Shown: positions 16,032-44,615, counted from the stretch's first letter. The stretch is 64,000 nucleotides of DNA from Lachnospiraceae bacterium (GCA_015057425.1 SVEL01000011.1:5518-69517), one strand, 5' to 3'. Notes: generated by a model from the sequence alone, not told the origin. A program made the numbers and translations.

Positions 16032-17225
16032 ATGAACGATAATATAAATAATGCATTGTTTGTGCAAGGTTTTATAAGAATGTGCGATGACGGATTTAAT
16101 CAGGGGTGGCATGAAAGAAATGGTGGTAACCTTACATATAGAATTAAGCCTGAAGAAATTGAAGAAGTTAAGTCTGAATTGAAAGATGATGGAGAATGGT
16201 TTCCGATTGGAACAAGTGTTCCGGGTTTAGCTGGGGAGTATTTTCTTGTAACAGGTTCAGGAAAGTATTTCAGAAACGTGATTTTAGATCCGTGGGCTAA
16301 TATCGCTATTGTTAAAATAGATGATAATGGTGAAAAATATAAAATTGTATATGGATTAGAAAAAGGTGGAAAGCCAACAAGCGAACTGCCATCTCACTTG
16401 ATGAATCACGAAGTTAAAAAGAGAGTAACCAATGGCGAACATAGAGTTATTTATCATTGCCATACAACAAATGTAATTGCACTTACGTTTGTTCTTCCTC
16501 TTGAAGATAAAGTGTTTACAAGAGAATTATGGGAAATGGCAACAGAATGTCCGGTTGTATTTCCTTCAGGAGTAGGTGTGGTACATTGGATGGTTCCGGG
16601 TGGAAGAGATATAGCTGTTGAAACATCTAAACTTATGGAAATGTATGATGTGGCAATTTGGGCTCATCATGGAATATTCTGCTCAGGTGCAGATTTTGAC
16701 CTTACATTTGGTCTTGCGCATACAGTTGAGAAAGCAGCTGAGATACTTGTAAAAACTCTTTCTATGCAGAATTACAAACTACAGACTATTGAGCCACAAG
16801 AATTTAGGAATCTGGCAAAGGATTTTAAAGTAGATATACCTGAGAAGTTCTTGTATGATAAAACAACAAAATACGTGATAAATACTGTTGATACCACGGA
16901 AAATAAATCAATAATCAGAAAGTCGTTTAAGATGAAATTATTCGAGGGTATGGAAGACGAATACGAGCGCAGACACAATGAATTATGGCCTGAGATGAAA
17001 GAAATGATACATGAATATGGCGGTCACAATTATTCTATATTCCTGGATAAAGAAACCAATATTCTGTATGGATATATAGAACTTGAAAATGAAGAAAAAT
17101 GGGCCAAGTCAGCTGATACGGAAATCTGTAGGAAATGGTGGGATTATATGGCAGATATAATGGAAACAAATCCTGATAATAGTCCTGTTTCTACTGATTT
17201 GAAAAATGTGTTCTTCTTGAAATAA
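16032..17225 (+). CDS. rhaD: fusion protein: rhamnulose-1-phosphate aldolase (RhaD) plus L-rhamnose mutarotase (RhaM)
   Basis: The N-terminal ~270 aa align by eye with E. coli RhaD (ELPSHLMNHE..., HCHTTNVIALT, TECPVVFPSGVGVVHWMVPG). The C-terminal ~105 aa align with E. coli RhaM/YiiL (YERRHNELWPEM, HNYSIFLDK, NPDNSPVSTDL). ATG 16032 is preferred over the TTG at 15978. Confidence 0.9.
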   Translation: MNDNINNALFVQGFIRMCDDGFNQGWHERNGGNLTYRIKPEEIEEVKSELKDDGEWFPIGTSVPGLAGEYFLVTGSGKYFRNVILDPWANIAIVKIDDNGEKYKIVYGLEKGGKPTSELPSHLMNHEVKKRVTNGEHRVIYHCHTTNVIALTFVLPLEDKVFTRELWEMATECPVVFPSGVGVVHWMVPGGRDIAVETSKLMEMYDVAIWAHHGIFCSGADFDLTFGLAHTVEKAAEILVKTLSMQNYKLQTIEPQEFRNLAKDFKVDIPEKFLYDKTTKYVINTVDTTENKSIIRKSFKMKLFEGMEDEYERRHNELWPEMKEMIHEYGGHNYSIFLDKETNILYGYIELENEEKWAKSADTEICRKWWDYMADIMETNPDNSPVSTDLKNVFFLK

Positions 17226-17265
17226 TGCCTTTTTGGAATGATATGATAAATGATATTTTTGCACT

Positions 17266-17300
17266 AAAAACCTCCTGCTAAAATTTGCAGGAGGTTTTTT
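17266..17300. terminator. bidirectional terminator between convergent genes
   Basis: The aaaaacctcctgc / gcaggaggttttt stem flanked by A and T runs. Confidence 0.8.
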
Positions 17301-17344
17301 GCTACGTAATACTGCTCGTATTGCTTTTTGTCTGAAAATATATT

Positions 17345-18718
17345 TTAGAGAGGAGCTTTACCCCAAACACAGATATGATTATTGTTTATGCCTGTAAGAA
17401 CTACACATGGTTTCCAAAGTTCGTAATCCCAACCGGGAAGAACTGTAAGCGTTTCAACTGTTTTACCATATGAAATCTCAATGGTATATTCATCTGTAAA
17501 ATGCCAGTGACCTTTAATTGTTTCCTGTATGAGAACAGAACCATCGTTTTTTAATTCCATTAATGTGGAATGTCTTATACCTTGAGGTATAGTTGGCTGT
17601 AAAGTGATTCTTTCGAAAGTGCGGCATACAAGTTCTTTTGGAACCGGCTGTAACTGTTCGCCTGCATATTGAAGAGGAGATGCACATGGCCAACCGTCTT
17701 TTGTCCAAACTATCTTTCTTATATGCATTGTTGAGGCTTCTCCACCTTTGAAGTTCTTTTCTCTTATATGGCAAATTACATACCAATTATTATCAAAGTC
17801 ACGAAGTACTGAGTTGTGTCCCGGTCCCATATATGGCTTGCAATCCTTAAAAGCATAACCGCATTCTATCATATAACCTAATGTATTATCTGTATCGTTG
17901 ATGTCGGTCATATCTCTTCCGTTATGATCGTAGTAAGGACCGGTTATACATTTGCTTCTTCCTACACGGATGTTATAATCGCTTTTAAGAGAAGCATATG
18001 AAACGAAAAGATAATAGTATTCTGTATCCGGATTGTAAATTATGTATGGACCTTCGATTGCACAATCAGCCCACTGTGGTCTTCTTGCAATACATTTACC
18101 GATTAATTCTTCTTCAGTAGTAGGATTTGCGTTGGCTGCAAGTCCTGTTTCTTTATCTAACTTAAGTATATGACATCCGCCCCAGAATGAACCATAAGTC
18201 ATATACTGTTCTCCTGTTTCTACATCTTCCACAATATTAGCATCAATTGCATTGACCGGCAATTTTTCTGATGTTTTTAAAACCGCGCCACGTGGTATAA
18301 ATGGACCTTCGGCATTGTCGGCAACAGCAAGGAAAATACAAGACTGTCTTACACCCCATGTGGAGTTTGAACCATAAATTCTGTATTCGTCTCCTACTTT
18401 AACAATATCCGGAGCCCAAATAGCATTACCGCCAACCCAGTCAGAGGATTCTTTTGGAGGAGCTTCGATAACTCGTCCTAATCGTTCGAAACTGATTAAA
18501 TCAGTTGATTTTAAACATTCAGCACCGGTTCCGTATATATAGTAATTATTTGACACGGGATCGTGATATATAGCAGGGTCGTGAGTAAACCAAACACTGT
18601 TTTTAGGTAAAGGTTCAGGTCTTTCGCCCGGCTTTGGCGGAAGCGGTTTTCCTGCCGGCTTTGGTGGCTCGGAAGGAAATATATATTCGTCTATAGAAAT
18701 ATTATTTAAATTATTCAT
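17345..18718 (-). CDS. glycoside hydrolase family 43 protein (arabinanase/arabinofuranosidase-like), no signal peptide
   Basis: 457 aa. GH43-type five-bladed propeller motifs (HDPAIY, WAPDIVKVGDEYRIYGS, CAIEGPYI). Pro-rich N-terminus PPKPAGKPLPPKPGERPEP. Confidence 0.85.
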   Translation of the reverse strand: MNNLNNISIDEYIFPSEPPKPAGKPLPPKPGERPEPLPKNSVWFTHDPAIYHDPVSNNYYIYGTGAECLKSTDLISFERLGRVIEAPPKESSDWVGGNAIWAPDIVKVGDEYRIYGSNSTWGVRQSCIFLAVADNAEGPFIPRGAVLKTSEKLPVNAIDANIVEDVETGEQYMTYGSFWGGCHILKLDKETGLAANANPTTEEELIGKCIARRPQWADCAIEGPYIIYNPDTEYYYLFVSYASLKSDYNIRVGRSKCITGPYYDHNGRDMTDINDTDNTLGYMIECGYAFKDCKPYMGPGHNSVLRDFDNNWYVICHIREKNFKGGEASTMHIRKIVWTKDGWPCASPLQYAGEQLQPVPKELVCRTFERITLQPTIPQGIRHSTLMELKNDGSVLIQETIKGHWHFTDEYTIEISYGKTVETLTVLPGWDYELWKPCVVLTGINNNHICVWGKAPL

Positions 18719-18756
18719 ATATTACTCCAATCTTAAGAATAAGTTTTGCTACTATA

Positions 18757-20022
18757 TTAATATTTTTTTGCTGCAAGGAAATTACCGTTATTATCAAATC
18801 CTATTAAAAGAGTAGTTTGAACTGATGTGGAACTAATCTTTACAGGAACAGATATATATTCTTCCACGGTGTTGTTGTATCTGATTATAAGTTTATTATC
18901 GTTGCTTATAATCCAGTATCCTCTAAGGCTACCACCTAATTCAACTCTACCGCCTGCTTTATGTGGTATAGCAAGAGCCCATGAATTTCTTGTAGAGCTT
19001 ACACCTTGTTCGGATGGCTGCAATAATGATAAAGGATTGTAGTCATTAAGTGGTAACGGAACTTCCTTTGTAAGGTTAATATATTCATACGGACCGCATA
19101 CATTACTTGGTAAAATACTTGTATCACAAGGTGTACCACATAATTCCATTCCAAAAGGTACGGGGAGAAATGGTATCTGTGCATTGGATGATTCTGTAGT
19201 AAGTAAATCGGTAATACTTACAATACCATCTTCTTCATCACTGTTGTATACGTATACAGACAAGTGGAGTTTGTTGTTGAAATCTTTGAAAACAACAGGT
19301 CTTGAGTAACCATACACAAATGTACAATCATCGAAATGCATAGGTGCAAGAATCATATAGCCTATTGTGTCATCAAAGTTATTGGTATCTGCCATGTCAC
19401 GTCTGTTACAGTCCAGATATGGTCCGTTTATATGTGAGCTTTTGCCAACTCTTACAGAACCATGTTTATCACTTCCGTAAGTTGCAAATAAATAGTAAGA
19501 TTTGTCATTTTCGTTATAATATATGTAACCATCTGTAATACGGGAATTGAATTCAGGAGCTTTGGCAATAGTAATTCCCGGACCATCCACAAAAGCAAGA
19601 CCATTGCGTGGGTTAAGATGAAGTATCTTTACACCACCGTGACAACATCCGTACACAAGGTAATGTTCACGGGTAATAGGGTCTGATATAACAGATGGAT
19701 GTGATATAACAAGTCGGTTGTGATTAAACTCAAAAGAGTTATCATCATATGTAATTACATAGTCTCTAACGTGAAAACCGCTTGTTGGTGTGTCTGATAC
19801 ATAAAGTAGAATACCATCATCTGTTACTGTGTAGATACGGTATTCATTTCTGACTTTTATAACTGCAGGCTGGTTCAACTGCGGAAGTTCACTTTGTGCA
19901 GGTTCCCAGTCTTTAAGGTTGTCTGAAACAAATACATCACTGCCGTCACCGTAGCAGTAGTATTTTTCTGTTGCTTCATCGGCCAAAATGTAGGGATGTT
20001 TTAAACTGAAATTGGTTGACAT
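18757..20022 (-). CDS. GH43-like glycoside hydrolase paralog, no signal peptide
   Basis: 421 aa. Weaker GH43-like pattern (HPYILAD, HPSVISD, TDGYIYY, SVRVGKS). Confidence 0.7.
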   Translation of the reverse strand: MSTNFSLKHPYILADEATEKYYCYGDGSDVFVSDNLKDWEPAQSELPQLNQPAVIKVRNEYRIYTVTDDGILLYVSDTPTSGFHVRDYVITYDDNSFEFNHNRLVISHPSVISDPITREHYLVYGCCHGGVKILHLNPRNGLAFVDGPGITIAKAPEFNSRITDGYIYYNENDKSYYLFATYGSDKHGSVRVGKSSHINGPYLDCNRRDMADTNNFDDTIGYMILAPMHFDDCTFVYGYSRPVVFKDFNNKLHLSVYVYNSDEEDGIVSITDLLTTESSNAQIPFLPVPFGMELCGTPCDTSILPSNVCGPYEYINLTKEVPLPLNDYNPLSLLQPSEQGVSSTRNSWALAIPHKAGGRVELGGSLRGYWIISNDNKLIIRYNNTVEEYISVPVKISSTSVQTTLLIGFDNNGNFLAAKKY

Positions 20023-33926: not shown

Positions 33927-33975
33927 AAAGAAGCTGAAGAGAATGTTGAAAAATGTTTGCTTCAGCTTCTTTTTT
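33927..33975. terminator. bidirectional terminator at the boundary to the recombinase island
   Basis: The aaagaagctgaag / cttcagcttcttt stem followed by a T run. Confidence 0.7.
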
Positions 33976-34001: not shown

Positions 34002-35591
34002 TTATATAGAATTATTAATGTATCTGAAATAAATTTTGATTTCAGGTTGTGTATTCCTGGAATGATACGTTTTTCGTTTGCCAACGTGAATTGAATGAAT
34101 AAGAGAGGACATCACGTCAGATGTAATGGTTTCTATCGGACCGAGGGCTAAGGAAATCTCAGTAAGCTTTACGATGTTTTCGTAATTATTTTTAGCAGTG
34201 TTATATTCTTTCTCTAAGGCAGACAGATTCTTCCTGGCAGCAGTAATCTTTAAATCGTATGCATTTGTCAAAGTTTTAAAATGTTCTAAAGATATATTTC
34301 CTGTCGCATAATCCTTGTACGAGGAGACTAAAAGCTGGTCTAATTCTTCTATAAGTTCTTTGCAGGAAGAAATTTTCTTTGAAATAGAGTTTTGCTGCTG
34401 TGTCTGCTTTGAGATGGATTTTTGAATGTAACTTTCGATAAAACTCTGCTTATTATCAGAAACGGCAAGGAAAAGTTTGTTTATTTCCCGGAGCAAAGCT
34501 TCTTCTATCACGTGATTTCGCACATAATGAGAAGTACATACAGATGGAACCTTCTTGCTGTTGCTGCAAACATAGTGGCTGGTATCGGGATTGGAATTGT
34601 TACTTCGACCGTGATACATTCTTCCTTTACAATCATCACAATATACGTAGCCTGAAAAAATATCATTCTCTCCCAATCTGTTTGGTCGTCTTTTTAAGGA
34701 ACGTCGTTTTTTGACAAGTTCAAATTCGTCATCAGTGATTATTGGCGGGTGCATATTCGGAACGACAATGTGCGAGTCAGGCGGATTTTTGATAACCTTT
34801 TTACTCTTAAATGAAGGTCTGTAAGTTTTACCGCTTACAACACAACCTGTATATGTTTGATTTTCCAAAATGTTTACAATTGTAGATTTATCCCATATGT
34901 AAGGGTGCTCGGCACGTTTTTTGGAATAATATAAGCCGCTTTTTCTGTAATTATAGGCACCCGGAGAGAGGATTTGATGAGATTCCATATATCTGGAAAT
35001 TTGAGAAGGACCCATTCCCTCTATACATAGTTTAAATATAAGTCTGACATTTGGAGAGGTTTCCGGGTTGATGATATATTGCTTGCTTTCGGAATCCTTC
35101 ATATAACCATAAGGCACCGAGCCGGAAATGTGTTCGCCACGTAACGCCATGGAATGTTGGATAGCACGAATCTTTCGGCTTGTGTCCTTTGGATACCATT
35201 CATTAAATAAATCCCGCATCGGCAATAAATCATCAAGCCCTTTGTTGGTGTCAATGCCATCATTTACAGCGATGTATCTTATATTGTGGGCAATAAAATC
35301 ATCCATAAGAGAGCCGATTACAAGATAATTTCTTCCGAGTCGTGAATGATCTTTTACTATGATAGTGGAAATATCTCCATTTCGTACCTGGGACAACAGT
35401 CGGCTGAATGCCGGTCTTTCAAAATTGGTACCGGACCAACCATCGTCGATGTAGTATTCAATGTTAGTGAAATGGTGTTCGAAAGCATAGTTTCTTAAGA
35501 AAATTTTCTGGTTACTGATACTTCCGCTTTCTGTGTTTTGTTCATCGTCTTTACTTAATCTGCAGTAAAGTGCTGTAATCTTTTGTTTCAT
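34002..35591 (-). CDS. large serine recombinase (resolvase/invertase catalytic domain, recombinase domain, zinc ribbon, coiled coil)
   Basis: 529 aa. N-terminus ALYCRLSKDDE...SISNQ contains the catalytic Ser motif. VKDHSRLGRN motif. Cys cluster YCDDCKGRMY...YVCSN. Confidence 0.9.
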   Translation of the reverse strand: MKQKITALYCRLSKDDEQNTESGSISNQKIFLRNYAFEHHFTNIEYYIDDGWSGTNFERPAFSRLLSQVRNGDISTIIVKDHSRLGRNYLVIGSLMDDFIAHNIRYIAVNDGIDTNKGLDDLLPMRDLFNEWYPKDTSRKIRAIQHSMALRGEHISGSVPYGYMKDSESKQYIINPETSPNVRLIFKLCIEGMGPSQISRYMESHQILSPGAYNYRKSGLYYSKKRAEHPYIWDKSTIVNILENQTYTGCVVSGKTYRPSFKSKKVIKNPPDSHIVVPNMHPPIITDDEFELVKKRRSLKRRPNRLGENDIFSGYVYCDDCKGRMYHGRSNNSNPDTSHYVCSNSKKVPSVCTSHYVRNHVIEEALLREINKLFLAVSDNKQSFIESYIQKSISKQTQQQNSISKKISSCKELIEELDQLLVSSYKDYATGNISLEHFKTLTNAYDLKITAARKNLSALEKEYNTAKNNYENIVKLTEISLALGPIETITSDVMSSLIHSIHVGKRKTYHSRNTQPEIKIYFRYINNSI

Positions 35592-35633
35592 TGAAATAAA
35601 CCTCCGTTTGTAATATATTTGTGTAACAATTAT

Positions 35634-35642
35634 ATTATATCA
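35634..35642 (-). promoter_or_regulatory. extended -10 (TGaTATAAT) of the recombinase gene
   Basis: The minus strand reads agTGaTATAAT, about 45 nt upstream of the recombinase ATG (RBS GGAGG). Confidence 0.5.
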
Positions 35643-35643
35643 C

Positions 35644-35675
35644 TATGGCGGTATACCATTAGGGAACCCGCCATA
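35644..35675 (-). other. dyad-symmetric candidate recombinase binding/crossover site
   Basis: The minus strand reads TATGGCGG-gttccctAAtggtata-CCGCCATA: perfect 8 bp arms and a 16 nt spacer. The centre falls on the AA of the CCTAA core shared with the four cassette genes. Confidence 0.5.
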
Positions 35676-35805
35676 AGGGAGATAAAGAAACTAGGGATAA
35701 AAGAAGAGAAGTGATTCAGATAAATATATACCCAAAACGCTTCTCTAAAAGATGGAACTTCCTATATTAGAATTAATGATTATAAAATTGAATTAAATAG
35801 ATAGA

Positions 35806-36663
35806 TTATAGTTTGCAAGTACCACAATCTTTAGATTTCAGATCATTAAATTTCATTACAAATTCATCAACTGTTTTCGACTCTATCGCAAAGTCAAACC
35901 ACTTATCAAGAATATCCGAATTATTTTCATCTTTGATGGAACAAGTAACAATCTCAGGCACATCACCAAGTCGACAGAGTATACGTAATATATATTCAGT
36001 TTTGCCTTCATGTTTAGCTTTTTTTGATGTGCGATTAAGCAATTCTTCAAACTTCATATATCCCGCCTCCAATTCACGACTCTTTTTGAGTTTTGTTACC
36101 TCTTCGTGCAGCTTATGTATCAAAGGATTTTTGACGGTTGATACATATTCGTCACTTGTATTTTCGAAGTATTCAAAAAATTCCCGCAGCTCATCAGGTA
36201 AACTCTCAACATCTTTACCTTTAGTGTTAAAGAAAATCCTTTTAGCGCCATCACCAAGCTTCGCACCATCTTCTGAGCAGGATGCTTCATATGTATATCT
36301 GCAAAGTCCACGTCCAAACGGATCAAATGTACAGATAAATATGATAAAGCTATCTCCGAGTTTGTCATAACTGTCACCCGGTTTCAAAGAAGATATATCA
36401 ACTTCAGCCTGGTAATAACGACTTCGCTTTGGCAAATCATCTTCAGAGAAATTCTGCGCTTCAATATCATAATTAACATCAAATGAATCTGTTGCATGTA
36501 CATCAAGACGGATACATTTAACATCTGAGCTTATAAGTATCGGATGTTCTGACTTAACATTTAGATTATCCACGTGCTTTCCAAGCAACAATTCCAACAT
36601 AATTCTACAGTTATCGGGATTTTCAAATACAGCTGCAAAAAGAAAAGAACTGTTCAAATTCAA
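35806..36663 (-). CDS. Rpn-family recombination-promoting nuclease / PD-(D/E)XK putative transposase
   Basis: 285 aa. RLDVHATD...NYDIEAQN...RSRYY matches the D/ExQ/R-Y pattern of the PDDEXK_2 (YhgA/Rpn) family. The start codon is uncertain: TTG at 36663, or ATT 9 nt after GGAGG. Confidence 0.7.
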   Translation of the reverse strand: MNLNSSFLFAAVFENPDNCRIMLELLLGKHVDNLNVKSEHPILISSDVKCIRLDVHATDSFDVNYDIEAQNFSEDDLPKRSRYYQAEVDISSLKPGDSYDKLGDSFIIFICTFDPFGRGLCRYTYEASCSEDGAKLGDGAKRIFFNTKGKDVESLPDELREFFEYFENTSDEYVSTVKNPLIHKLHEEVTKLKKSRELEAGYMKFEELLNRTSKKAKHEGKTEYILRILCRLGDVPEIVTCSIKDENNSDILDKWFDFAIESKTVDEFVMKFNDLKSKDCGTCKL

Positions 36664-36728
36664 ATCTTTAAACTCTTTACTAATTATTAAACACCTCCTA
36701 CAAAATAGGAAGTTCCCTCTCTTAGAGA

Positions 36729-36756
36729 ATTATACCACTTATTGTATGTAAGTCAA
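36729..36756 (-). promoter_or_regulatory. promoter of the left Rpn gene
   Basis: The minus strand reads TTGACT, 16 nt spacer, TGgTATAAT. Confidence 0.55.
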
Positions 36757-36785
36757 TATATTTTGTATAAATAATTAGTGCCGAA

Positions 36786-36868
36786 TAAAAAACCGAGAGA
36801 CATTGTCTCTCGGTGGGAAAAGGAAAAACAAGCAAAAAAGAAGTCATACCCAAAAGTATGACTTCTTT
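36786..36868 (-). terminator. twin terminator hairpins downstream of cassette gene A
   Basis: On the minus strand: agaagtcatac...gtatgacttct plus a T run, then ccgagagacaatgtctctcgg plus a T run. Confidence 0.7.
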
Positions 36869-36900
36869 ATTAGTGAGAGTTAATTTATCAAGTAAGCTGA

Positions 36901-37827
36901 TTATTCAGCAACGGTTCTCTTTCTCATAACAACAACTACTGCCATAGCAGCTACTGCTAAGATAGCTACTGGAAGAACTGCTGTCATATCACCTGTTTCT
37001 GTTGCATCTTCTGTTTCTGTCTCTGTTGCAGTAGGAGCTGCATATAAAGCTGCTACATCTGCCGCACTTAATTCGCGTTCATAAATGCACACTTCGTCCA
37101 TTAAACCAGAGAAGTTAGCATTCCACCAGTCGCCACTTCCAATAAAACCAACATCTGTCCAAGATGCTGCATCATCACTAAACATGTTTAAATATGTTGA
37201 GCCATTGTCTGTAGAATAAGCAAACCAACCATCGTCAGTATAATTAGCTTCATCCCAGTATGTTGAAACTTCAACACCATCTACATAAACTGTTGCTTTG
37301 CCTGTTGCTGAAACAGTATATGTTAACATTGTCCACTTTGATGTATCCTGACCAACCTTACCTGTTCTCCAATGGTCACCTACTGCTGATTCCCAACTAA
37401 ATGCGCTTGACATAGCTGCACGTGATGCTGCGAATGCATCTGTTGTGTTATTTGAACAGAACTGGAAATACTGACAGCAACCGTCAAAGAACAATGCTGT
37501 TCCTGTTGCGTCATTCTTTACCCAATAACTAACTGTAAAAGCTGTTGTTGTAGGAAGCTTATCCAAGGCAATAGCTACTGCTGCGTTTGCAAGTGTACTT
37601 GTGCCAGCATTTGCTGAAAAGTCAAATGCTTTACCTTTGATACCACCGTCAACATAAGCCGCTGTTCCTTTGTTAAGTGTTGCATCTGAGTCAGCGGCAT
37701 CATTTGCCAAACTATCTTCGAAAGAGTATTTTGCTATTAACCCCGTTTCGATATCAGCCGCAAATGCAGGCGCTGCTAATGCAAGTGTCATTACTGTAGC
37801 TACTGCTACTGCAAAAAATTTCTTCAT
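36901..37827 (-). CDS. secreted LamG/concanavalin-like surface protein, cassette paralog A
   Basis: The start MKKFFAVAVATVMTLALAAPAFA follows GGAGG. LamG-type motif DEVCIYERELSAADVAALY. C-terminus ATETGDMTAVLPVAILAVAAMAVVVVMRKRTVAE. Confidence 0.85.
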   Translation of the reverse strand: MKKFFAVAVATVMTLALAAPAFAADIETGLIAKYSFEDSLANDAADSDATLNKGTAAYVDGGIKGKAFDFSANAGTSTLANAAVAIALDKLPTTTAFTVSYWVKNDATGTALFFDGCCQYFQFCSNNTTDAFAASRAAMSSAFSWESAVGDHWRTGKVGQDTSKWTMLTYTVSATGKATVYVDGVEVSTYWDEANYTDDGWFAYSTDNGSTYLNMFSDDAASWTDVGFIGSGDWWNANFSGLMDEVCIYERELSAADVAALYAAPTATETETEDATETGDMTAVLPVAILAVAAMAVVVVMRKRTVAE

Positions 37828-37887
37828 TTTTCTTTCTACCTCCAATATTAATGTGGTATTCCCCAAAGATAAAAATATATATTTAGG
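37779..37887 (-). repeat. conserved 5' module (CCTAA core, leader, RBS, signal-peptide codons), copy A
   Basis: Near-identical to 38817-38946, 39166-39295 and 41383-41512. Confidence 0.85.
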
Positions 37888-37922
37888 GAACCCGCCATAA
37901 GGGAGATGAAGAAAGAGAAATG

Positions 37923-37956
37923 AAAAAGAAGTCATACCAAAAAGTATGACTTCTTT
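37923..37956 (-). terminator. terminator hairpin downstream of cassette gene B
   Basis: The agaagtcatac / gtatgacttct stem plus a T run on the minus strand. Confidence 0.65.
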
Positions 37957-37989
37957 CATTAGTGAGAATTAATTTATTAAGTATGCTGA

Positions 37990-38886
37990 TTATTCAGCGA
38001 CTGTTCTCTTTCTCATAGCAACAACTACTGCCATAGCAGCTACTGCTAAGATAACTACAGGAAGAACTGCTGTCATATCACCTGTTTCTGTTGCTTCTTC
38101 TGTTTCTGTTTCCTGAATGAATTCGCCTGCTGCTGCTGATGCAACTCCAGCTGCATCTAATTCATCAAACCAAATTGCTACATCATCAAACAAAAGATGT
38201 GAGTCTCTATCTGTCCAGCAGTGATTGTGATATCCACCGATAGTAGCTATAGTATACAAATCTGAGAATGCATCACCAGTATCTGTACGATCTAAACTAT
38301 TAAGAACTTCGCCATCAAGATAAACAACTGACTTTGTAGCAGTTACAGTATAAACCAAATGATGCCACTCGTTGTCATCAAGATATCCGTCATAATTGTT
38401 TGTGTTATATGCGTTGTTATCAAAGAAACCGCCGTTATTAACATGCATTGTTCCTCTAACACCAAAAACTGTCCACTGCCAGTCAGCATCAGGATTCTGC
38501 GCTGTAAATATTGGTGCCCAGCCGTCGCCGATTTCTGTCCAATTAGTAACATCATTATTTGACGCAGGTGATTTTACCCACATACTAAGTGAAAACTCTT
38601 CTGCTGCTGCAAGATCTTCCAAAAACTTTTCAGGAAGTTTTAAATAATCTGTACGCTGTGCTGAAGCTGAACCAGTTACGTTGTCAAATACCTTTCCGCG
38701 TGCATCATCTGCAATTGCACCTGATCCAACAATTGTAAGTGCTGTATCTGTTTCTCCTGCAAGACCTGCATTGTTTAAATTTCCTTCGAAATCATAATAA
38801 TAATTAGGTGCATCCATTGCGAAAGCTGAAACTGACATAGCAAGTGTTGTCACTGTAGCTAAAGCTACTGCAAAAATTTTTTTCAT
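37990..38886 (-). CDS. secreted LamG-like surface protein, cassette paralog B
   Basis: Start MKKIFAVALATVTTLAMSVSAFA. Motif FDDVAIWFDELDAAGVA. Same ETGD-TM-RKRTVAE tail. Confidence 0.85.
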   Translation of the reverse strand: MKKIFAVALATVTTLAMSVSAFAMDAPNYYYDFEGNLNNAGLAGETDTALTIVGSGAIADDARGKVFDNVTGSASAQRTDYLKLPEKFLEDLAAAEEFSLSMWVKSPASNNDVTNWTEIGDGWAPIFTAQNPDADWQWTVFGVRGTMHVNNGGFFDNNAYNTNNYDGYLDDNEWHHLVYTVTATKSVVYLDGEVLNSLDRTDTGDAFSDLYTIATIGGYHNHCWTDRDSHLLFDDVAIWFDELDAAGVASAAAGEFIQETETEEATETGDMTAVLPVVILAVAAMAVVVAMRKRTVAE

Positions 38887-38946
38887 TTTTCTTTCTACCT
38901 CCAATATTAATGTGGTATTCCCCAAAGATAAAAATATATATTTAGG
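38817..38946 (-). repeat. conserved 5' module, copy B (left arm of the inverted repeat flanking the B-C intergenic segment)
   Basis: The first 83 nt from the core are identical to copy C in inverted orientation. A few mismatches follow, out to ~130 nt. Confidence 0.85.
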
Positions 38947-39110
38947 GAACCTGCCATAAGGGAGATGAAGAAAGAAGAGAATGATATGTTGTGAAAACTT
39001 GATAAGTTTCGATAAAGAGTTGACACAGCGTTTAGTATAAATGTGGAGTTTTACTAAACAAAACGTGGTAAAATTCGGATTAAAAAAATAAAAAAAGAAT
39101 TAACATTATG

Positions 39111-39139
39111 TTGACAATAACTTAAATAAATGATATTAT
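39111..39139 (+). promoter_or_regulatory. near-consensus sigma-A promoter facing cassette gene C
   Basis: TTGACA (39111-39116), 17 nt spacer ending in TGa, TATTAT (39134-39139). Confidence 0.65.
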
Positions 39140-39165
39140 TTTTTTATCTTAAAAAAAGAGGTATG

Positions 39166-39295
39166 CCTAAATATATATTTTTATCTTTGGGGAATACCAC
39201 ATTAATATTGGAGGTAGAAAGAAAAATGAAAAAAATTTTTGCAGTAGCTATGGCTACAGTAATGACACTTGCTATGTCAGTTTCAGCTTTCGCTG
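39166..39295 (+). repeat. conserved 5' module, copy C (right arm of the inverted repeat)
   Basis: Homology to the other copies begins exactly at CCTAA (39166-39170). The upstream sequence is unique and carries the promoter. Confidence 0.85.
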
Positions 39296-40137
39296 CAACA
39301 CCAGTTTACTTCAATGATTTTGAAGATGGCGCAGGCGATGCAACAATCGTAGGTAGTGGTGCAATTGAAGATGATGCCAATGAAAAATATGGAAAGGTTT
39401 TCCATAACGCAGTAGGCGATGCAACAAATGTTAGAACAAATTACTTGCTTTTACCGGAAGATGTATTATCACATAGCGTAGATTCAAAAGAATTAACTAT
39501 TCAGTTTTGGGTCAACTTAGGTGCAACAGGTACAAATGATATGTATTCTCCGTTATTTGGTGCTTATGCTGCAGAACCACCTGCAACAGGAAATTCATGG
39601 CCGATGTTGGTTCTTCAGTCAAGATTACTTGCTCAGGTTAACTGTGCCGGATGGAGTGATCTTACAGCAGATCAGAATCTTGAAGGCGGAAATACAGAAG
39701 ATGTTACATGGTTAGATGACAAAGAATGGCACTTATACACAGTTACATTTGATGAAGAAATCGTAACAATTTATGTTGATGGTGTTGTTAAGCAGAAATG
39801 GGATGCTTCAACAGATTATGGCACAAACACTGACACAACAGTAGCTGGTTTGTATTCAAACGGTGCAGACCTTAAGTATATCTGCCTTGGTGGTAACCAG
39901 GCTTGGAACTGGGGCGATCCAGATGCTGACTATTTATTTGATGATGTTGCAATCTACAACGTAGCTTTATCAGCAGATGATATTGCTGATGTTATGGAAG
40001 CAAAGACAGCAGAAGCTTCAGACACAGAAGATGCAACAGAAACAGGTGATATGACAGCAGTTCTTCCAGTAACTATCTTAGCAGTAGCTGCTATGGCAGT
40101 AGTTGTTGTTATGAGAAAGAGAACAGTTGCTGAATAA
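39226..40137 (+). CDS. secreted LamG-like surface protein, cassette paralog C
   Basis: Start MKKIFAVAMATVMTLAMSVSAFA. Motif FDDVAIYNVALSADDIADV. Same ETGD-TM-RKRTVAE tail. Confidence 0.85.
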   Translation: MKKIFAVAMATVMTLAMSVSAFAATPVYFNDFEDGAGDATIVGSGAIEDDANEKYGKVFHNAVGDATNVRTNYLLLPEDVLSHSVDSKELTIQFWVNLGATGTNDMYSPLFGAYAAEPPATGNSWPMLVLQSRLLAQVNCAGWSDLTADQNLEGGNTEDVTWLDDKEWHLYTVTFDEEIVTIYVDGVVKQKWDASTDYGTNTDTTVAGLYSNGADLKYICLGGNQAWNWGDPDADYLFDDVAIYNVALSADDIADVMEAKTAEASDTEDATETGDMTAVLPVTILAVAAMAVVVVMRKRTVAE

Positions 40138-40169
40138 TCAGCTTACTTAATAAATTAACTCTCACTAAT

Positions 40170-40251
40170 AAAGAAGTCATACTTTTGGGTATGACTTCTT
40201 TTTTGCTTGTTTTTCCTTTTCCCGCCGAGAGACAATGTCTCTCGGTTTTTT
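40170..40251 (+). terminator. twin terminator hairpins downstream of cassette gene C
   Basis: The same two hairpins as at 36786-36868, in mirror orientation. Confidence 0.7.
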
Positions 40252-40278
40252 ATACTCATTGTTTTTATGCAAAATGTA

Positions 40279-40306
40279 TTGACATATAAACAATATGTGG
40301 TATAAT
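40279..40306 (+). promoter_or_regulatory. promoter of the right Rpn gene
   Basis: TTGACA (40279-40284), 16 nt spacer, TGgTATAAT (-10 at 40301-40306). Confidence 0.6.
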
Positions 40307-40341
40307 GAATGAAAGGAAACTTCCTGTTTTGTAGGAGGTGT

Positions 40342-41238
40342 TTGTTAATTAATAAGGATTTTAAAGATTTAAATTTAAACAGTTCGTTTCTTTTTGCGGC
40401 AGTATTTGAAAATCCAGACAATTGCAGAATTATGCTGGAACTGTTACTTGGGAAACACATCGACAATCTAAGTGTTAAATCTGAGCATCCGCTACTTATA
40501 AGTACAGATGTCAAATGTATTCGGCTCGATGTACATGCCACAGATTCCTACGATGTTAATTATGATATCGAAGCACAGAATTTCTATGAGGATGACCTGG
40601 CAAAGAGAAGCCGTTATTATCAAGCAGAATTAGATGTGGCATCTTTAAAACCTGGTGACAGCTATGATAAACTTGGTGATTCTTTTATCATATTTATCTG
40701 TACATTTGATCCGTTCGGTCGAGGGCTTTGCAGATATACATATGAAGCCTCTTGTTCAGAGGATGGCGAAAAGCTTGGCGATGGCGCAAAAAGGATTTTC
40801 TTTAATACCAAAGGAAAAGATGTGGAGAGTTTATCTGCTGAACTGAGGGAGTTTTTTGGATATTTCGAAAACACAAATGACGCGTATGTATCAACTGTCA
40901 ACAATCCTTTGATACACAAGTTACATAAAGAAGTTACCAAACTTAAAAAGAGTCGTGAATTGGAGGCCGGATATATGAAGTTTGAAGAGTTGCTCAATCG
41001 AACATCGGAAAAAGCTAAGCGTGAAGGCAAAATTGAAGGTAAGATCGAAGATATATTACGTATACTCTGTCGCCTTGGTGATATCCCTGAAGATGTCACC
41101 TGTTCTATCAAGCACGAAAACAATTCAGAGATTCTCGATAAGTGGTTTGACATTGCAATAGAATCAAAAAACGTTGATGAATTTATAAAAAAGTTTAAAA
41201 GTCTGAACTCTAAGGATTATGGTGCTTACAAACTATAA
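40342..41238 (+). CDS. Rpn-family recombination-promoting nuclease / PD-(D/E)XK putative transposase (second copy)
   Basis: Roughly 85-90 percent identical by eye to the 35806-36663 product, with one 4 aa indel. The ORF-track ATG at 40309 lies 2 nt after the -10 and so upstream of the likely TSS. The real start is probably TTG 40342 or ATT 40348. Confidence 0.7.
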   Translation: MLINKDFKDLNLNSSFLFAAVFENPDNCRIMLELLLGKHIDNLSVKSEHPLLISTDVKCIRLDVHATDSYDVNYDIEAQNFYEDDLAKRSRYYQAELDVASLKPGDSYDKLGDSFIIFICTFDPFGRGLCRYTYEASCSEDGEKLGDGAKRIFFNTKGKDVESLSAELREFFGYFENTNDAYVSTVNNPLIHKLHKEVTKLKKSRELEAGYMKFEELLNRTSEKAKREGKIEGKIEDILRILCRLGDIPEDVTCSIKHENNSEILDKWFDIAIESKNVDEFIKKFKSLNSKDYGAYKL

Positions 41239-41382
41239 TCTGTCTATTTGATTAAAATTTATTATCATTAAAGATTTACACAGGAAGTTCCATCTTTTTA
41301 GAGAAGTGTTTTGGGTATATATTTATCTAAATCACTTCTCTTATTTTATCCCTATTTTCTTCATATCCCTTATGGCAGGTTC

Positions 41383-41512
41383 TCTAAATATATATTTTTA
41401 TCTTTGGGGAATACCGCATTAATATTGGAGGTAGAAAGAAAAATGAAGAAAATTTTTGCAGTAGCAGTAGCTACAGTAATGACACTTGCTATGTCAGTTT
41501 CAGCTTTCGCTG
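41383..41512 (+). repeat. conserved 5' module, copy D
   Basis: Same leader, RBS and signal peptide. The core has one change (tctaa). Confidence 0.8.
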
Positions 41513-42237
41513 CAACAGAAGACAGGGTTGTTTATCAGAAAAATACTTATGCACTTGATGGTGATGCAACAACAGTAGAAAGTATGGATAATCCATTATT
41601 AAATCTTGATGCAAGCAAGATTGTAGTTGAATTCACAGTAACATCTCAGCAGCAGTTTGCAGCTTGGCCTATGGTAGCTTGTTTCTACAATTTAGATGAT
41701 AACGATGCTCCAAGAGGTGCAGCAGCAGTCAATTACTGGCCAAAGATTGAATTAAACAAATTTGATGATCCAAACCAGTGGTGTTCAGCAGGTTCAGGTG
41801 AGGCAAACAACGGTGGTACAATTTATGCGGATACACACTGTGATGGTCAGCCACATACATACAAATATGAAATCACAGACACAGCTGTTGTTATGACAGT
41901 TGATGGTACAGTCATCACTACAAAGTATGGTTATGGTGATGGGGCTTCAACAGATGCTGAATGTGCTGCTATGATTTTGGATTATATGAATACAGCTGCG
42001 AAATTTTCATTAGGAGCTGGAAGCAATATTTTTACTTGGGGTGAATTAACAGGTACACTTGAAAACTTCAAGATTACAGCTACAGTAGAAGCAACTGAAC
42101 CAACTCCAACAGAAGGAACGGAAACAGAAGATGCAACAGAAACAGGAGATATGACAGCAGTTCTTCCAGTAGCTATCTTAGCAGTAGCTGCTATGGCAGT
42201 AGTAGTTGTTATGAGAAAGAGAACAGTTGCTGAATAA
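41443..42237 (+). CDS. secreted surface protein, cassette paralog D (divergent beta-rich core)
   Basis: Start MKKIFAVAVATVMTLAMSVSAFA. Same ETGD-TM-RKRTVAE tail. The core lacks the LamG end motif. Confidence 0.8.
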   Translation: MKKIFAVAVATVMTLAMSVSAFAATEDRVVYQKNTYALDGDATTVESMDNPLLNLDASKIVVEFTVTSQQQFAAWPMVACFYNLDDNDAPRGAAAVNYWPKIELNKFDDPNQWCSAGSGEANNGGTIYADTHCDGQPHTYKYEITDTAVVMTVDGTVITTKYGYGDGASTDAECAAMILDYMNTAAKFSLGAGSNIFTWGELTGTLENFKITATVEATEPTPTEGTETEDATETGDMTAVLPVAILAVAAMAVVVVMRKRTVAE

Positions 42238-42274
42238 TATTTAGTTACTGAATTTAATAACAAAAATAAGAACA

Positions 42275-42308
42275 AAATCCGGGACTTTAAAAGCCTCGGA
42301 TTTTATTT
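42275..42308 (+). terminator. terminator after paralog D
   Basis: The atccggg / cctcggat stem followed by TTTTATTTT. Confidence 0.55.
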
Positions 42309-42362
42309 TAAACAAAAAGTTTATAAAATTTTTATAATTTTTAGAAAAATGTTATTTAACCA

Positions 42363-42391
42363 TTGACAAATGATATAAAAGAATATAGAAT
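42363..42391 (+). promoter_or_regulatory. promoter of the 42450 gene
   Basis: TTGACA, 17 nt spacer, TAGAAT. Confidence 0.55.
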
Positions 42392-42449
42392 TAGCATTGT
42401 AAGGTAATTGGATTGTATGATTACAAAAAGTCTATTTGGGAGGAGAACA

Positions 42450-43295
42450 ATGAAGAAAAAGTTTTTTGCGGTAGTCGCTACGACTGTGATAACAGCTATG
42501 ATGTCGCTTACAGCATTTGCATCATCGTTTCAGCTTACAGAAAGTAGCACATACAAGTATGCCAATCCGTTAAAAGGTACTAATCCGGAAGAAGTAACTA
42601 TTGAATACACTATCACTGCAGCTGATAATGCAGCGGCAAATGGATGGGATGGTATATTATCATTCTATAACTCGAGTACATTGGGACGTGTTTCTATTCA
42701 AAGTCATCCGTATGTATGTTGGAATTCAGCTAATGCAGCAGCAGGATGGATTGACCATAAGGCATCAGCATTACAGATAAAGAAGGGCGTTGAACAGTCA
42801 TATAAGATTGTTATTAATAAGGATGGAATTCAGATGTTTTTAAATGGTGAAGCAATAACAAGTGCTGATACAGGTACATCGGCAGGCGATGCAACACCTA
42901 TAGCGGTTACATATCAGAATATTCTTGATGAAATTAACGGATGTGATTATTTCTTTGTAGGCGTAGGAAAAGCACAGTATTGCTATTGGAATACGGAGGT
43001 TTGTACGTTAACAGGCGTTAAAGTCAATGGTAAGGAATTTGACCCGGATAAGATTTTGCAGGAAGAGACAACGACGTTGGGAGTTCCTGAAAAGAACACT
43101 ATGGATTATGGTGTTCCTGTAGATGATAGCGGTTCAGTGAATATAGTGCCGGTTATTGTGGTATCGGTAGTTGCAGTTCTTGCAGTGGTTGTGGTTGTAG
43201 TTGTTCTTGTGATTGTTATATCTAAAGGAAAGAAAAAGAATAATGACGAAGAAATAAATAAAGAATCGCAGGAAGAGACGAATTCGGAAGAATAA
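42450..43295 (+). CDS. secreted, TM-anchored surface protein (lectin-like beta-rich ectodomain, acidic cytoplasmic tail)
   Basis: MKKKFFAVVATTVITAMMSLTAFA follows GGGAGGAG. C-terminal TM helix VPVIVVSVVAVLAVVVVVVVLVIVI, then KGKKK and an acidic tail. Confidence 0.75.
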   Translation: MKKKFFAVVATTVITAMMSLTAFASSFQLTESSTYKYANPLKGTNPEEVTIEYTITAADNAAANGWDGILSFYNSSTLGRVSIQSHPYVCWNSANAAAGWIDHKASALQIKKGVEQSYKIVINKDGIQMFLNGEAITSADTGTSAGDATPIAVTYQNILDEINGCDYFFVGVGKAQYCYWNTEVCTLTGVKVNGKEFDPDKILQEETTTLGVPEKNTMDYGVPVDDSGSVNIVPVIVVSVVAVLAVVVVVVVLVIVISKGKKKNNDEEINKESQEETNSEE

Positions 43296-43348
43296 ATTTA
43301 TACAAATTACTTTTGATTAATTTTATTTAATAATCGTTTTACTTTTAT

Positions 43349-43377
43349 TTGACTTTAATACATAAATGTGATATAAT
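43349..43377 (+). promoter_or_regulatory. promoter of the 43446 gene
   Basis: TTGACT, 17 nt spacer ending in TGa, TATAAT. Confidence 0.6.
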
Positions 43378-43445
43378 TTTGTCATATTTATGGGATAAAA
43401 GAAACATAAATTTATCAAATTCAATAATCTAAGGGAGGAAAGAAA

Positions 43446-44543
43446 ATGAAGAAAAGAATTTTTGCAGCAGTTATTACTGCTATGATGACAGTATCTATGG
43501 CTGTATCAGCATTTGCAGCAGATATTGAATCAGATCTTATTGGTAAGTTTACATTTGATGAAAACATCACAAATGCAGTTACCGGAGAAGACGCTAAGAT
43601 TATTGCTCAGAAGGGATTAGGCCCTGATGCAGCAGCAGTAGAGTACACATTCCCATTCGTAGATGGTGTAGATGGTAAGGCTCTTCATTTAGGTACAGAC
43701 ACAACAGGTGCAGCTAATACAAACGCACTTAACTTAAACCTTAAGGTTAAAGATGACCAGAACTATACATTCTCAGTATGGGTAAAGGCTTTCGAAGAAA
43801 GAGTTAACTTTGCTTGTCCTGTTGTTTGGATGGGTAAAGCAGTTCAGTCTCCAGAAAACTGGGTAGGTATCTGGCCAGGACTTGCTGGTGACTATGCAAA
43901 TGGTCCATGTTTCGGTGCTAACGGTATTATCGACAGCTCAGAAGTTGTTACAAGATTAGGTGCTGTACCTCTTACAGACGAAGGTCTTGGTATTAAGAAA
44001 CCTGTTAACGCTGAAGTTAAGACAACATTTGAATGGACAAATATTACTGCAGTAGTTAAAGATGGTATTGCTTGGTTATACTATGATGGAAAGTTAGTAG
44101 CTTCAACAGAAGGTAAGAACGGTACTAATGGTGATCAGCAGTTAACACCACATGTAAATGAAGATGATACAGTAAGCATTTACCTTGGTGCAAACTACTG
44201 GGATGCTCCGTTCGTAGGATATGTTGATGACTTATACATCTATGACAGAGCTTTAACAACAGAAGATGTAGTTGCATTAGTAACAGAAACAAACAAAGCC
44301 GGTGTTGCATTAGGCGACTATTCAGAATATGTTACAACAACAACAATCGACTACACAAAGAAACCAAGTATCAACAAGAATCCTGATTGGGTACAGGAAG
44401 AAGAAGATTCTATGTTAGTACCAATTATTATTGCAGCAGCAGTAGTAGTTGTATTAGTAGTAGTTATCGTATTGGTATTAGTAGTAAGCAAGTCAAAGAA
44501 GAAAGACGATGCTGAAGAAGATGCAGAAGATACAAACGCTTAA
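43446..44543 (+). CDS. secreted LamG-domain protein with C-terminal TM anchor and acidic tail
   Basis: 365 aa. Signal peptide ending SAFA, LamG motif VDDLYIYDRALTTEDVVAL, TM helix, then KSKKKDDAEEDAEDTNA. Confidence 0.85.
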   Translation: MKKRIFAAVITAMMTVSMAVSAFAADIESDLIGKFTFDENITNAVTGEDAKIIAQKGLGPDAAAVEYTFPFVDGVDGKALHLGTDTTGAANTNALNLNLKVKDDQNYTFSVWVKAFEERVNFACPVVWMGKAVQSPENWVGIWPGLAGDYANGPCFGANGIIDSSEVVTRLGAVPLTDEGLGIKKPVNAEVKTTFEWTNITAVVKDGIAWLYYDGKLVASTEGKNGTNGDQQLTPHVNEDDTVSIYLGANYWDAPFVGYVDDLYIYDRALTTEDVVALVTETNKAGVALGDYSEYVTTTTIDYTKKPSINKNPDWVQEEEDSMLVPIIIAAAVVVVLVVVIVLVLVVSKSKKKDDAEEDAEDTNA

Positions 44544-44582
44544 TATTTGTGCTTGATTTATAGTTATTGAATATTGATAAGA

Positions 44583-44615
44583 AAAGGGATGCCAAAGTAA
44601 TGGCGTCCCTTTTTA
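44583..44615 (+). terminator. rho-independent terminator
   Basis: The aagggatgcc / ggcgtccctt stem followed by TTTT. Confidence 0.75.

Follow-up and report, generated by a model that had tools for sequence, protein, structure and literature searches.

What is a large serine recombinase (LSR) for when it stands beside a row of genes for lectin-like secreted proteins and apart from any other mobile-element genes? The question is raised by a 64,000-nucleotide stretch of DNA (hereafter the window; GCA_015057425.1, SVEL01000011.1:5518-69517) from G000, a Lachnospiraceae metagenome-assembled genome of 2.47 Mb. A preliminary description of the window had treated positions 34002-44615, which hold the recombinase gene, two Rpn genes and six genes for secreted proteins (G1 to G6), as one island, and had favoured a domesticated, invertase-like role of the enzyme over that of an integrase. 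We consider it likely that the segment 34002-42300 is a self-contained multiple-inversion promoter shufflon under an LSR of the TnpX/TndX clade and that it works as described below. The features of the locus are presented in Table 1.

Recombination sites with a common core

The regions 5' of G1-G4 and of the recombinase gene were aligned, and their homology was found to break exactly at a CCTAA core (TCTAA at G4), the terminal AA of which is the probable crossover point. There are five such sites with three types of junction between a left and a right half, L_s/R_g, L_p/R_g and L_s/R_r. L_s is a promoterless left half, TTTCTTCATCTCCCTTATGGC(G/A)GGTTC(C/T)CTAA, which is present upstream of G1, G2 and G4 (with R_g) and of the recombinase gene (with R_r); L_p, the left half of the G3 site, reads TTGACA-17-TATTAT...AAAGAGGTATGCCTAA, with the junction GAGGTATGCCTAA/ATATAT... 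On the right-hand side, R_g (ATATATATTTTTATCTTTGGGGAATACC...RBS...ATG) comprises the common leader, the ribosome-binding site (RBS) and the signal-peptide 5' end of G1-G4, and R_r (TGGTATACCGCCATAGTGATATAAT...) is the leader of the recombinase gene. The copies of L_s differ at no more than 2 of 20 nt, and the first 32 nt are the same in all four R_g leaders, with 96% similarity between the G2 and G3 copies over 128 nt. G1-G4 share a 5' module (leader and signal peptide; 128-160 nt, 82-96% identical) and a 3' module (anchor and terminator; 91-97% identical), and it is the central parts that differ between the genes.

The five sites lie in both orientations, and all of them are internal to the locus; a common 5' module that carries the site in both orientations is what is expected of a shufflon. 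A search of the whole genome returned L_s four times and L_p/R_g and R_r once each, always within this locus. The recombinase-proximal L_s/R_r site is dyad-symmetric (TATGGCGG..CCGCCATA) and overlaps an extended -10 element (TGATATAAT) in front of the recombinase gene. A canonical attP x attB reading, in which the weakly symmetric L_p/R_g would be the second partner and L_s/R_g an attL-like hybrid, was considered and set aside: since the symmetry of the sites was judged by eye only, no directionality rule was derived from it.

Two other sequences of G000, both outside the window, were recorded. On contig C22 (~106228, minus strand), a TTGACA box is followed by AAAAAAAGAGGGTATGCCTAA/ACGTAATTTG, which is much like the L_p half-site and has no L_s partner nearby. 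On contig C10 (14400-14650), an inverted repeat of ~45 nt, with arms ~180 nt apart, contains GTATGCCTAA; it looks like the long stem of a structured RNA that is unrelated to the shufflon.

One predicted cargo-facing promoter on a site-bounded segment

Which of the genes can be transcribed in the present arrangement? In a consensus promoter scan, matches at 11-12 of 12 positions were found only in the place facing G3 and in front of both Rpn genes, G5, G6 and the gene of the binding protein (SBP) that follows G6, and none of comparable quality was detected 5' of G1, G2, G4 or the recombinase gene. The sole strong promoter predicted to face a cargo gene sits on a segment bounded by two recombination sites. 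Each cassette has the order R_g-gene-terminator-(Rpn)-L_s, with terminators after G1, G2 and G3; every junction joins an L to an R half; and both fixed ends, the recombinase gene on the left and G4 on the right, present an outward-pointing R half. Because the cassettes are uniform, the ends R-outward and all junctions of the L/R type, inversions can only redistribute the cassettes or flip the segment.

We propose that inversion between any two oppositely oriented sites would change the distribution of the cassettes between the two sides of the promoter segment or, alternatively, would flip the 219-bp segment itself. L_p would be joined to exactly one R half at a time, that of G1, G2, G3, G4 or the recombinase gene, and the outcome would be the strong expression of one lectin-like surface protein, probably anchored by sortase, in each cell lineage. 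The gene linked to the promoter at present would be G3, the other cargo genes of the array apparently lacking a promoter of their own. We infer that the adjacent recombinase is the catalyst and that the strain still switches, and likewise which genes are transcribed and what the proteins bind.

Exchange at the sites in a close relative

Evidence that such sites recombine was provided by the assemblies L172 and L173, both of which carry the same recombinase protein (P0011, 50% identical to that of the window) at the same ABC-3/DegV/PurL location as in the window. One flank is 100% identical between them over 7346 nt and the other 99.96% over 11758 nt, whereas a 2359-nt cassette with a LamG gene and an Rpn-like gene is inverted between the two and has changed sides with respect to the promoter segment. 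A single-nucleotide polymorphism (SNP) tags the two L_s copies as L_s' (GGTGG) and L_s'' (GGCGG). The R_g of a gene X is joined to L_p in L172 and to L_s'' in L173, the R_g of the LamG gene to L_s' in L172 and to L_p in L173, and the R_r of the recombinase gene to L_s'' in L172 and to L_s' in L173. The joints are exact at the cores, two inversions link both states, the promoter-linked gene changes from X in L172 to the LamG gene in L173, and the recombinase-proximal site took part in the exchange. Because the partner sites have nothing but the core in common, homologous recombination is ruled out for this exchange. Precise exchange at the sites, another property of a shufflon, was thus found in an orthologous system at the same locus and not seen in the strain of the window. 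A second polymorphic pair was sought in P0003, P0004, P0007 and P0016, and no variant arrangement was found in these contigs, which end near the recombinase gene.

L172 and L173 can be connected by two different two-step paths, one of which leads through the state L_p/R_r. Moreover, the relative G015 has two cargo genes in direct orientation, and for this reason its gene B can be reached by inversion only via the recombinase site. We tentatively raise the possibility, in itself rather doubtful, that the recombinase-proximal site is a real dock for the promoter and that L_p/R_r is a 'shuffle state', self-amplifying and self-limiting, that certain switches cannot bypass. In this state the strong promoter would drive the recombinase gene, with every cargo gene sitting behind a promoterless L_s.

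Layout, sites and genomic context in relatives

Is the arrangement peculiar to the strain of the window? Recombinases with more than 40% identity to that of the window were found in only three species representatives, all of the same genus (51-52%), and in a larger protein collection there were about 20 clusters at 45-72% identity, followed by a gap down to 39% or less. All nine assemblies whose upstream DNA was examined carry the site. With about 20 clusters at 45% identity or more and a site in nine out of nine assemblies, the system is no one-off. The same layout was recognized in eight related assemblies, including G006, G008, G015 and L171 to L174, and in these seven the GTATGCCTAA half-site (L_p) is kept throughout. 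In G015, the recombinase gene is followed by the promoter segment (between L_s and L_p), gene A, L_s/R_g and gene B; in G008, the promoter segment lies directly between the recombinase gene and the promoter-linked gene; and in G006, three genes behind L_s/R_g sites precede the promoter segment and an oppositely facing, promoter-linked fourth gene, and a separate contig begins with a terminator, L_s/R_r and the recombinase gene. L171 and L174 show the same pattern.

The recombinases of the window and of L171 (72% identity) use CCTTATGGCGG.TTC.CTAA/TGGTATACCGCC, and the lineage with 50% identity uses TCTTACGGC..CTCCCWAA/TGGYAAAC; judged from these sequences, recombinase lineage and site co-vary. 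Both lineages occupy the same ABC-3-to-SBP locus in species with highly similar flanks (PurL 96%, ABC-3 88-89% identical), which suggests either that the module was replaced as a whole or that recombinase and site co-evolved very fast there.

The array module was found in at least three contexts: between ABC-3 and G5-G6-SBP, between DUF2079 and DUF5688 (G015, G006 and L174) and beside a Bac_transf gene. On contig C6 of G000 (~17173-19991, outside the window), homologues of DUF2079 and DUF5688 stand side by side, which looks like an unoccupied site; at 34-38% amino acid identity, the sequences compared are too divergent to define junctions. The several contexts and this adjacency in G000 indicate that the module moved or was exchanged in evolution. 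The sub-clade that adjoins the Bac_transf gene (L176, L178, L179, L180 and L181; 48-52% identity) may control a polysaccharide locus. A LytR_cpsA_psr gene is present upstream in L179, and in L176 a promoter half-site resembling L_p lies 1.75 kb upstream, with two ordinary genes between.

No array architecture was found at 31 loci of more distant LSRs, which were screened for repeats of their upstream region; LSRs of mobile elements at 39% identity or less are thus apparently devoid of it. Apart from G015, the screen returned one isolated 18-nt match (L038, E 9e-5).

Rpn/PD-(D/E)XK-like genes stand at the 3' end of a cassette, directly before L_s, in at least four assemblies (Table 1), and are absent from L174 and from the recovered part of the G006 array. 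From species to species, their proteins show hardly any relatedness. A role as accessory or directionality factors is conceivable, as is one as a source of basal transcription that reads through into the recombinase gene. On contig C150 of G015, an Rpn-like gene is followed by a second palindromic site of the L_s/R_r type.

These data support the invertase-like role that had been favoured at the outset: five sites in both orientations that are unique in the genome, a promoter on a site-bounded segment, the layout in eight relatives, the co-variation of site and lineage and the exact core exchanges in a close relative all point to it. The word 'domesticated' has to be qualified in view of the three or more chromosomal contexts and of the version with 50% identity at the same locus.

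The recombinase

The recombinase has the Resolvase, Recombinase and Zn_ribbon_recom domains (PF00239, 7e-22; PF07508, 7.8e-23; PF13408, 1.2e-11), in agreement with its first assignment as an LSR of 529 aa. DUF4368, which is on record for most members of the clade, is weak in the protein of the window (E 0.0037, below the cut-off). The catalytic serine lies in a YCRLS motif, which is invariant among four relatives; the open reading frame (ORF) is undamaged, and none of the residues conserved in all the relatives has been lost from it. The best match in PDB is the catalytic domain of TnpX (2mhc, 1.6e-31), and over its full length the enzyme is 35% identical to a TnpX-like protein that is the neighbour of TnpW in an element of the Tn4451 family, and 32% identical to TndX. 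By its domains and closest characterized relatives, the enzyme belongs to the TnpX/TndX (DUF4368) clade of LSRs. It is not a small serine invertase, having 529 aa with LSR domains and scoring 35.6 bits with the Mpi model against a cut-off of 272.

A phylogeny, which the preliminary description had called for, was inferred by maximum likelihood. It placed the recombinase inside the transposon-type TnpX/TndX radiation, where the four array-linked LSRs form a clade of their own (99/100) on a long stem. Elsewhere in this radiation, near-identical proteins occur in different bacterial families, as mobile elements would lead one to expect.

TnpX is reported to catalyse integration as well as excision without a directionality factor, at a 2-bp core (PMC5704250), and, according to the title of Lyras and Rood (2000) as cited in PMC13023037, recombination creates a promoter for tnpX. 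By analogy with these two properties, a reversible invertase that needs no directionality factor and has a site before its own gene is plausible.

Does the strain of the window switch?

Several points weigh against the proposed shufflon. No inversion was detected in the window's own strain: 21 metagenome contigs of it are available, and the ten loci fetched show 100% identity, with one and the same order in the four that cover the whole array. Logan unitigs of eight DNA runs (3-10x) contained no variant junction at the recombinase site or at L_p, and in particular no L_p/R_r junction and no swap of the L_s SNP at the recombinase site. Genes are called 'silent' or 'expressed' here by matches to the promoter consensus alone. 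Between the strong Rpn promoters and the site that follows each of them no terminator was called, and read-through from these promoters could express G4 and the recombinase gene, which would blur a strict model with one gene ON. Finally, the role of the recombinase as catalyst is deduced from adjacency and site co-variation.

The metagenome runs that contain the G000 locus are of faecal, gut and wildlife origin. Most switches would be invisible in the unitig data because the depth is 3-10x, R_g is identical over more than 31 nt and unitigs break at repeats. Runs for the G015 locus, with word shares of only 0.04-0.06, were left aside. Two odd joints were noticed. Contigs in runs X1, X5 and X7 (depth 4-5) seem to replace 38895-39141 with TTTTGGAGGTAA (38894 to 39142), and a second joint connects 43378 to 35697 with 'ACCAAAA', which was looked for in the genome and is absent there; both were set aside as probable low-complexity artefacts.

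Could the shufflon then be a fossil, which once switched and is now locked or switches very rarely, with G3 expressed constitutively and G1, G2 and perhaps G4 kept as silent spares? The identical arrangement in all contigs and samples with the strain and the lack of variant junctions in the unitigs of the eight runs would agree with this. We nevertheless regard it as unlikely, given the very low detection power of the data used, the intact recombinase with all its invariant residues and the sequence uniformity of R_g, of the G2 and G3 leaders and of L_s.

A remnant of an integrative element or transposon, in which the block would have arrived by the action of the recombinase and the leaders would be repeated through simple gene duplication, is very improbable. 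In its favour are the transposon-type clade of the enzyme, the three or more chromosomal contexts with the adjacent DUF2079 and DUF5688 homologues in G000, and the 50%-divergent version at the same locus between flanks of 88-96% identity. A search for att-like repeats, however, revealed no outer att sites or target duplication at the junctions of the window, in the occupied locus of G015 or at the candidate empty site of G000, and the absence of flanking direct repeats noted earlier was confirmed by repeat analysis, which gave no meaningful pair. Mobilisation, conjugation and resistance genes, as in an element of the Tn4451/Tn5397 type, are lacking, as are other mobility genes; the five sites are all internal and in both orientations; and the polymorphism found is an internal inversion and not presence or absence. 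Such an origin accounts for the acquisition of the module, not for the purpose of five sites.

RecA-dependent homologous recombination with an incidental recombinase can practically be dismissed: the window does have long inverted repeats of 84-97% identity (128-160-nt 5' and 120-150-nt 3' modules, 1.35-kb Rpn arms), but nothing beyond the CCTAA core is common to the exchange partners in L172/L173, where the R_g of X differs from that of the LamG gene and both differ from R_r. L_p and L_s are unlike there too, and the joints are precise all the same; in the window, homology likewise breaks off at the core, and no long stretch of it exists on the R side of the recombinase-proximal site.

Gene content and limits of the unit

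The preliminary description stands as far as gene content, terminators and the lack of mobile-element hardware are concerned. Both Rpn genes gave PDDEXK_2/Rpn matches, and their proteins are 87% identical. A lectin-like nature is supported for all six secreted proteins, by Laminin_G_3 matches for G1, G2, G3 and G6, by the fold of the model for G4 and by homology to G4 (28% identity) for G5. For the AlphaFold model of G4 (pLDDT 70.6), Foldseek returned CBM40, laminin-G and further ConA-like lectin folds (E about 1e-6), and the idea of glycan binders fits this predicted fold. The cargo proteins of G006, G015, L171 and L174 have no Pfam match, hence no LamG match. Both flanking terminators fold well as hairpins, and a Pfam search of the nine ORFs of at least 200 aa gave no phage, conjugation, replication or resistance domains.

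The extent of the island did not hold. The terminator before the recombinase gene, which is common to this gene and the convergent ABC-3 permease gene, is the left limit of the recombinase unit, and to its left lie the housekeeping genes for PurL, DegV and a metal ABC importer. On the right, the unit stops after G4, at ~42300. The synteny comparison separates the array, from the recombinase gene to G4, from G5 and G6, which stay with the SBP locus: in the genus relatives G006 and G015, whose shufflons are elsewhere in the genome, the space between PurL and the same SBP gene (1058 aa in G000, the right neighbour of G6) holds LamG membrane proteins homologous to G6, just upstream of the SBP gene, and in L171 the orthologues of G5 and G6 lie outside the site-bounded array. 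With their own strong promoters, a different membrane anchor and this array-independent conservation, G5 and G6 are conserved neighbours of the downstream SBP locus and no shufflon cargo.

The cores of the cargo genes were probably recruited from these neighbours, G5 and G6 being the likely source of the G4-like and G1-like cores, because G4 resembles G5 as stated above and the N-terminus of G1 looks, by eye, like those of G6 and its G006 homologues. The C-terminal anchor in the 3' module reads ...ETGDMTAVLP..RKRTVAE; the motif xTGD-TM-[KR]K..E recurs in several other proteins of G000, which has two sortase genes, and by its sequence the anchor makes attachment of the lectin-like proteins to the cell wall likely. 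Genome-wide, sorting-type C-terminal signals of the form (P/T/E)TGD + hydrophobic helix + (R/K)KK..E were observed at 40018-40137 in the window and at seven to eight other loci of G000, including contigs C4, C7, C21, C23 (twice) and C29.

Table 1 Features of the recombinase-associated locus (positions in the window unless an assembly is named)
Feature	Position	Strand	Remarks
Hairpin terminator	33927..33975	.	-25.3 kcal/mol, z -6.6
LSR, 529 aa, TnpX/TndX-type	34002..35591	-	fixed left end of the array
Recombinase-proximal site L_s/R_r	35634..35700	-	core TTAGG at 35659-35663 on the + strand
Cassette 1	35664..37882	-	R_g, G1, two terminators, RpnA promoter, RpnA, L_s
RpnA (PDDEXK_2/Rpn)	35806-36663	-	Pfam; TIGR01784 match
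RpnA promoter	36756-36729	-	consensus promoter scan
Terminators 3' of G1	36837-36868, 36792-36814	-	in cassette 1
G1	36901-37827	-	Laminin_G_3 match
Core of promoterless site L_s/R_g 5' of G1	37883..37887	-	upstream-region alignment
Cassette 2	37888..38941	-	R_g, G2, terminator (37924-37957), L_s
G2	37990-38886	-	Laminin_G_3 match
Core of promoterless site L_s/R_g 5' of G2	38942..38946	-	upstream-region alignment
Promoter segment, 219 bp	38947..39165	+	L_s at left end (inverted), L_p at right end
Promoter TTGACA-17-TGaTATTAT	39111-39139	+	on promoter segment, currently facing G3
Core of expression site L_p/R_g	39166..39170	+	upstream-region alignment
Cassette 3	39171..41382	+	R_g, G3, terminators, RpnB promoter, RpnB, L_s
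G3	39226-40137	+	Laminin_G_3 match
Terminators 3' of G3	40170-40201, 40224-40246	+	in cassette 3
RpnB promoter	40279-40306	+	consensus promoter scan
RpnB (PDDEXK_2/Rpn)	40309-41238	+	Pfam; TIGR01784 match
Core (TCTAA) of site L_s/R_g 5' of G4	41383..41387	+	upstream-region alignment
Fixed right end	41388..42300	+	R_g, then G4
G4	41443-42237	+	ConA-like fold, no significant Pfam match; anchor xTGD-TM-RKRTVAE as in G1-G3
G5 and G6 block	42408..44543	+	own promoters, different anchor; outside the shufflon
G5	42450-43295	+	ConA/LamG-like membrane protein, no significant Pfam match
G6	43446-44543	+	LamG-like membrane protein, Laminin_G_3 match
Terminator 3' of G6	44583..44615	+	hairpin, z -5.9
Rpn-like genes before L_s in other assemblies	L171 6975-7988; L172 8748-9746; L159 4222-5320		assemblies with such genes: window, L171, L172/L173, G015

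Discussion

How does the proposed shufflon compare with known systems? Programmed variation of multi-gene surface families is known in Mycoplasma, Bacteroides, plasmids and phages, where it is brought about by tyrosine recombinases or small serine invertases. The closest in logic are the Mycoplasma shufflons (vsa/HvsR of M. pulmonis, vpma/Xer1 of M. agalactiae and vsp of M. bovis), with which the locus shares paralogous surface genes, a common 5' end that contains the site, what seems to be one promoter and an adjacent recombinase. In M. agalactiae, the adjacent recombinase inverts DNA between short sites and thereby moves a single promoter among surface-protein genes (PMC2268961). The Mycoplasma systems use tyrosine recombinases and have lipoprotein cargo, whereas here we find an LSR of 529 aa and ConA/LamG-like cargo whose anchor is of the sortase type, and the recombinase gene itself has a site at which the promoter could dock.

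With TnpX (Tn4451/Tn4453) and TndX (Tn5397), the enzyme has in common the clade, 32-35% identity, a weak DUF4368-type C-terminus and a site directly upstream of the recombinase gene. TnpX and TndX, however, excise and insert elements with resistance and mobilisation genes; here there are no such genes, five internal sites lie in both orientations, and the outcome observed is inversion. The small serine invertases also use serine chemistry for programmed inversion, Min and Mpi at multiple sites, and Mpi of Bacteroides flips promoters of surface structures. Hin, Gin, Cin, Pin, Min and Mpi are proteins of ~190 aa with a C-terminal helix-turn-helix, and the Hin/Gin type needs Fis and an enhancer; the recombinase of the window differs from them in its LSR architecture with zinc ribbon and coiled coil. 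In the sap S-layer system of Campylobacter fetus, a single promoter on an invertible segment is likewise moved before homologues with conserved 5' regions. The nested inversions of sap are RecA-dependent and involve no dedicated site-specific recombinase, in contrast to the exchange at a 5-bp core described here.

Our literature search found no description of a promoter shufflon driven by an LSR; absence from that search is no proof of novelty. If the proposed reading is true, the locus would be a natural, reversible, multi-site inversion system based on an LSR in abundant gut Lachnospiraceae and would illustrate a route from a transposon-type LSR to a switch of gene expression. The sets of LSR and site that co-vary between lineages, and that maybe work without a directionality factor, would be candidate parts for recombinase-based genetic circuits. 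Moreover, the lectin-like surface proteins of a fibre-degrading commensal would vary within its population, which would bear on attachment to glycans and to the host and on escape from phages and IgA.

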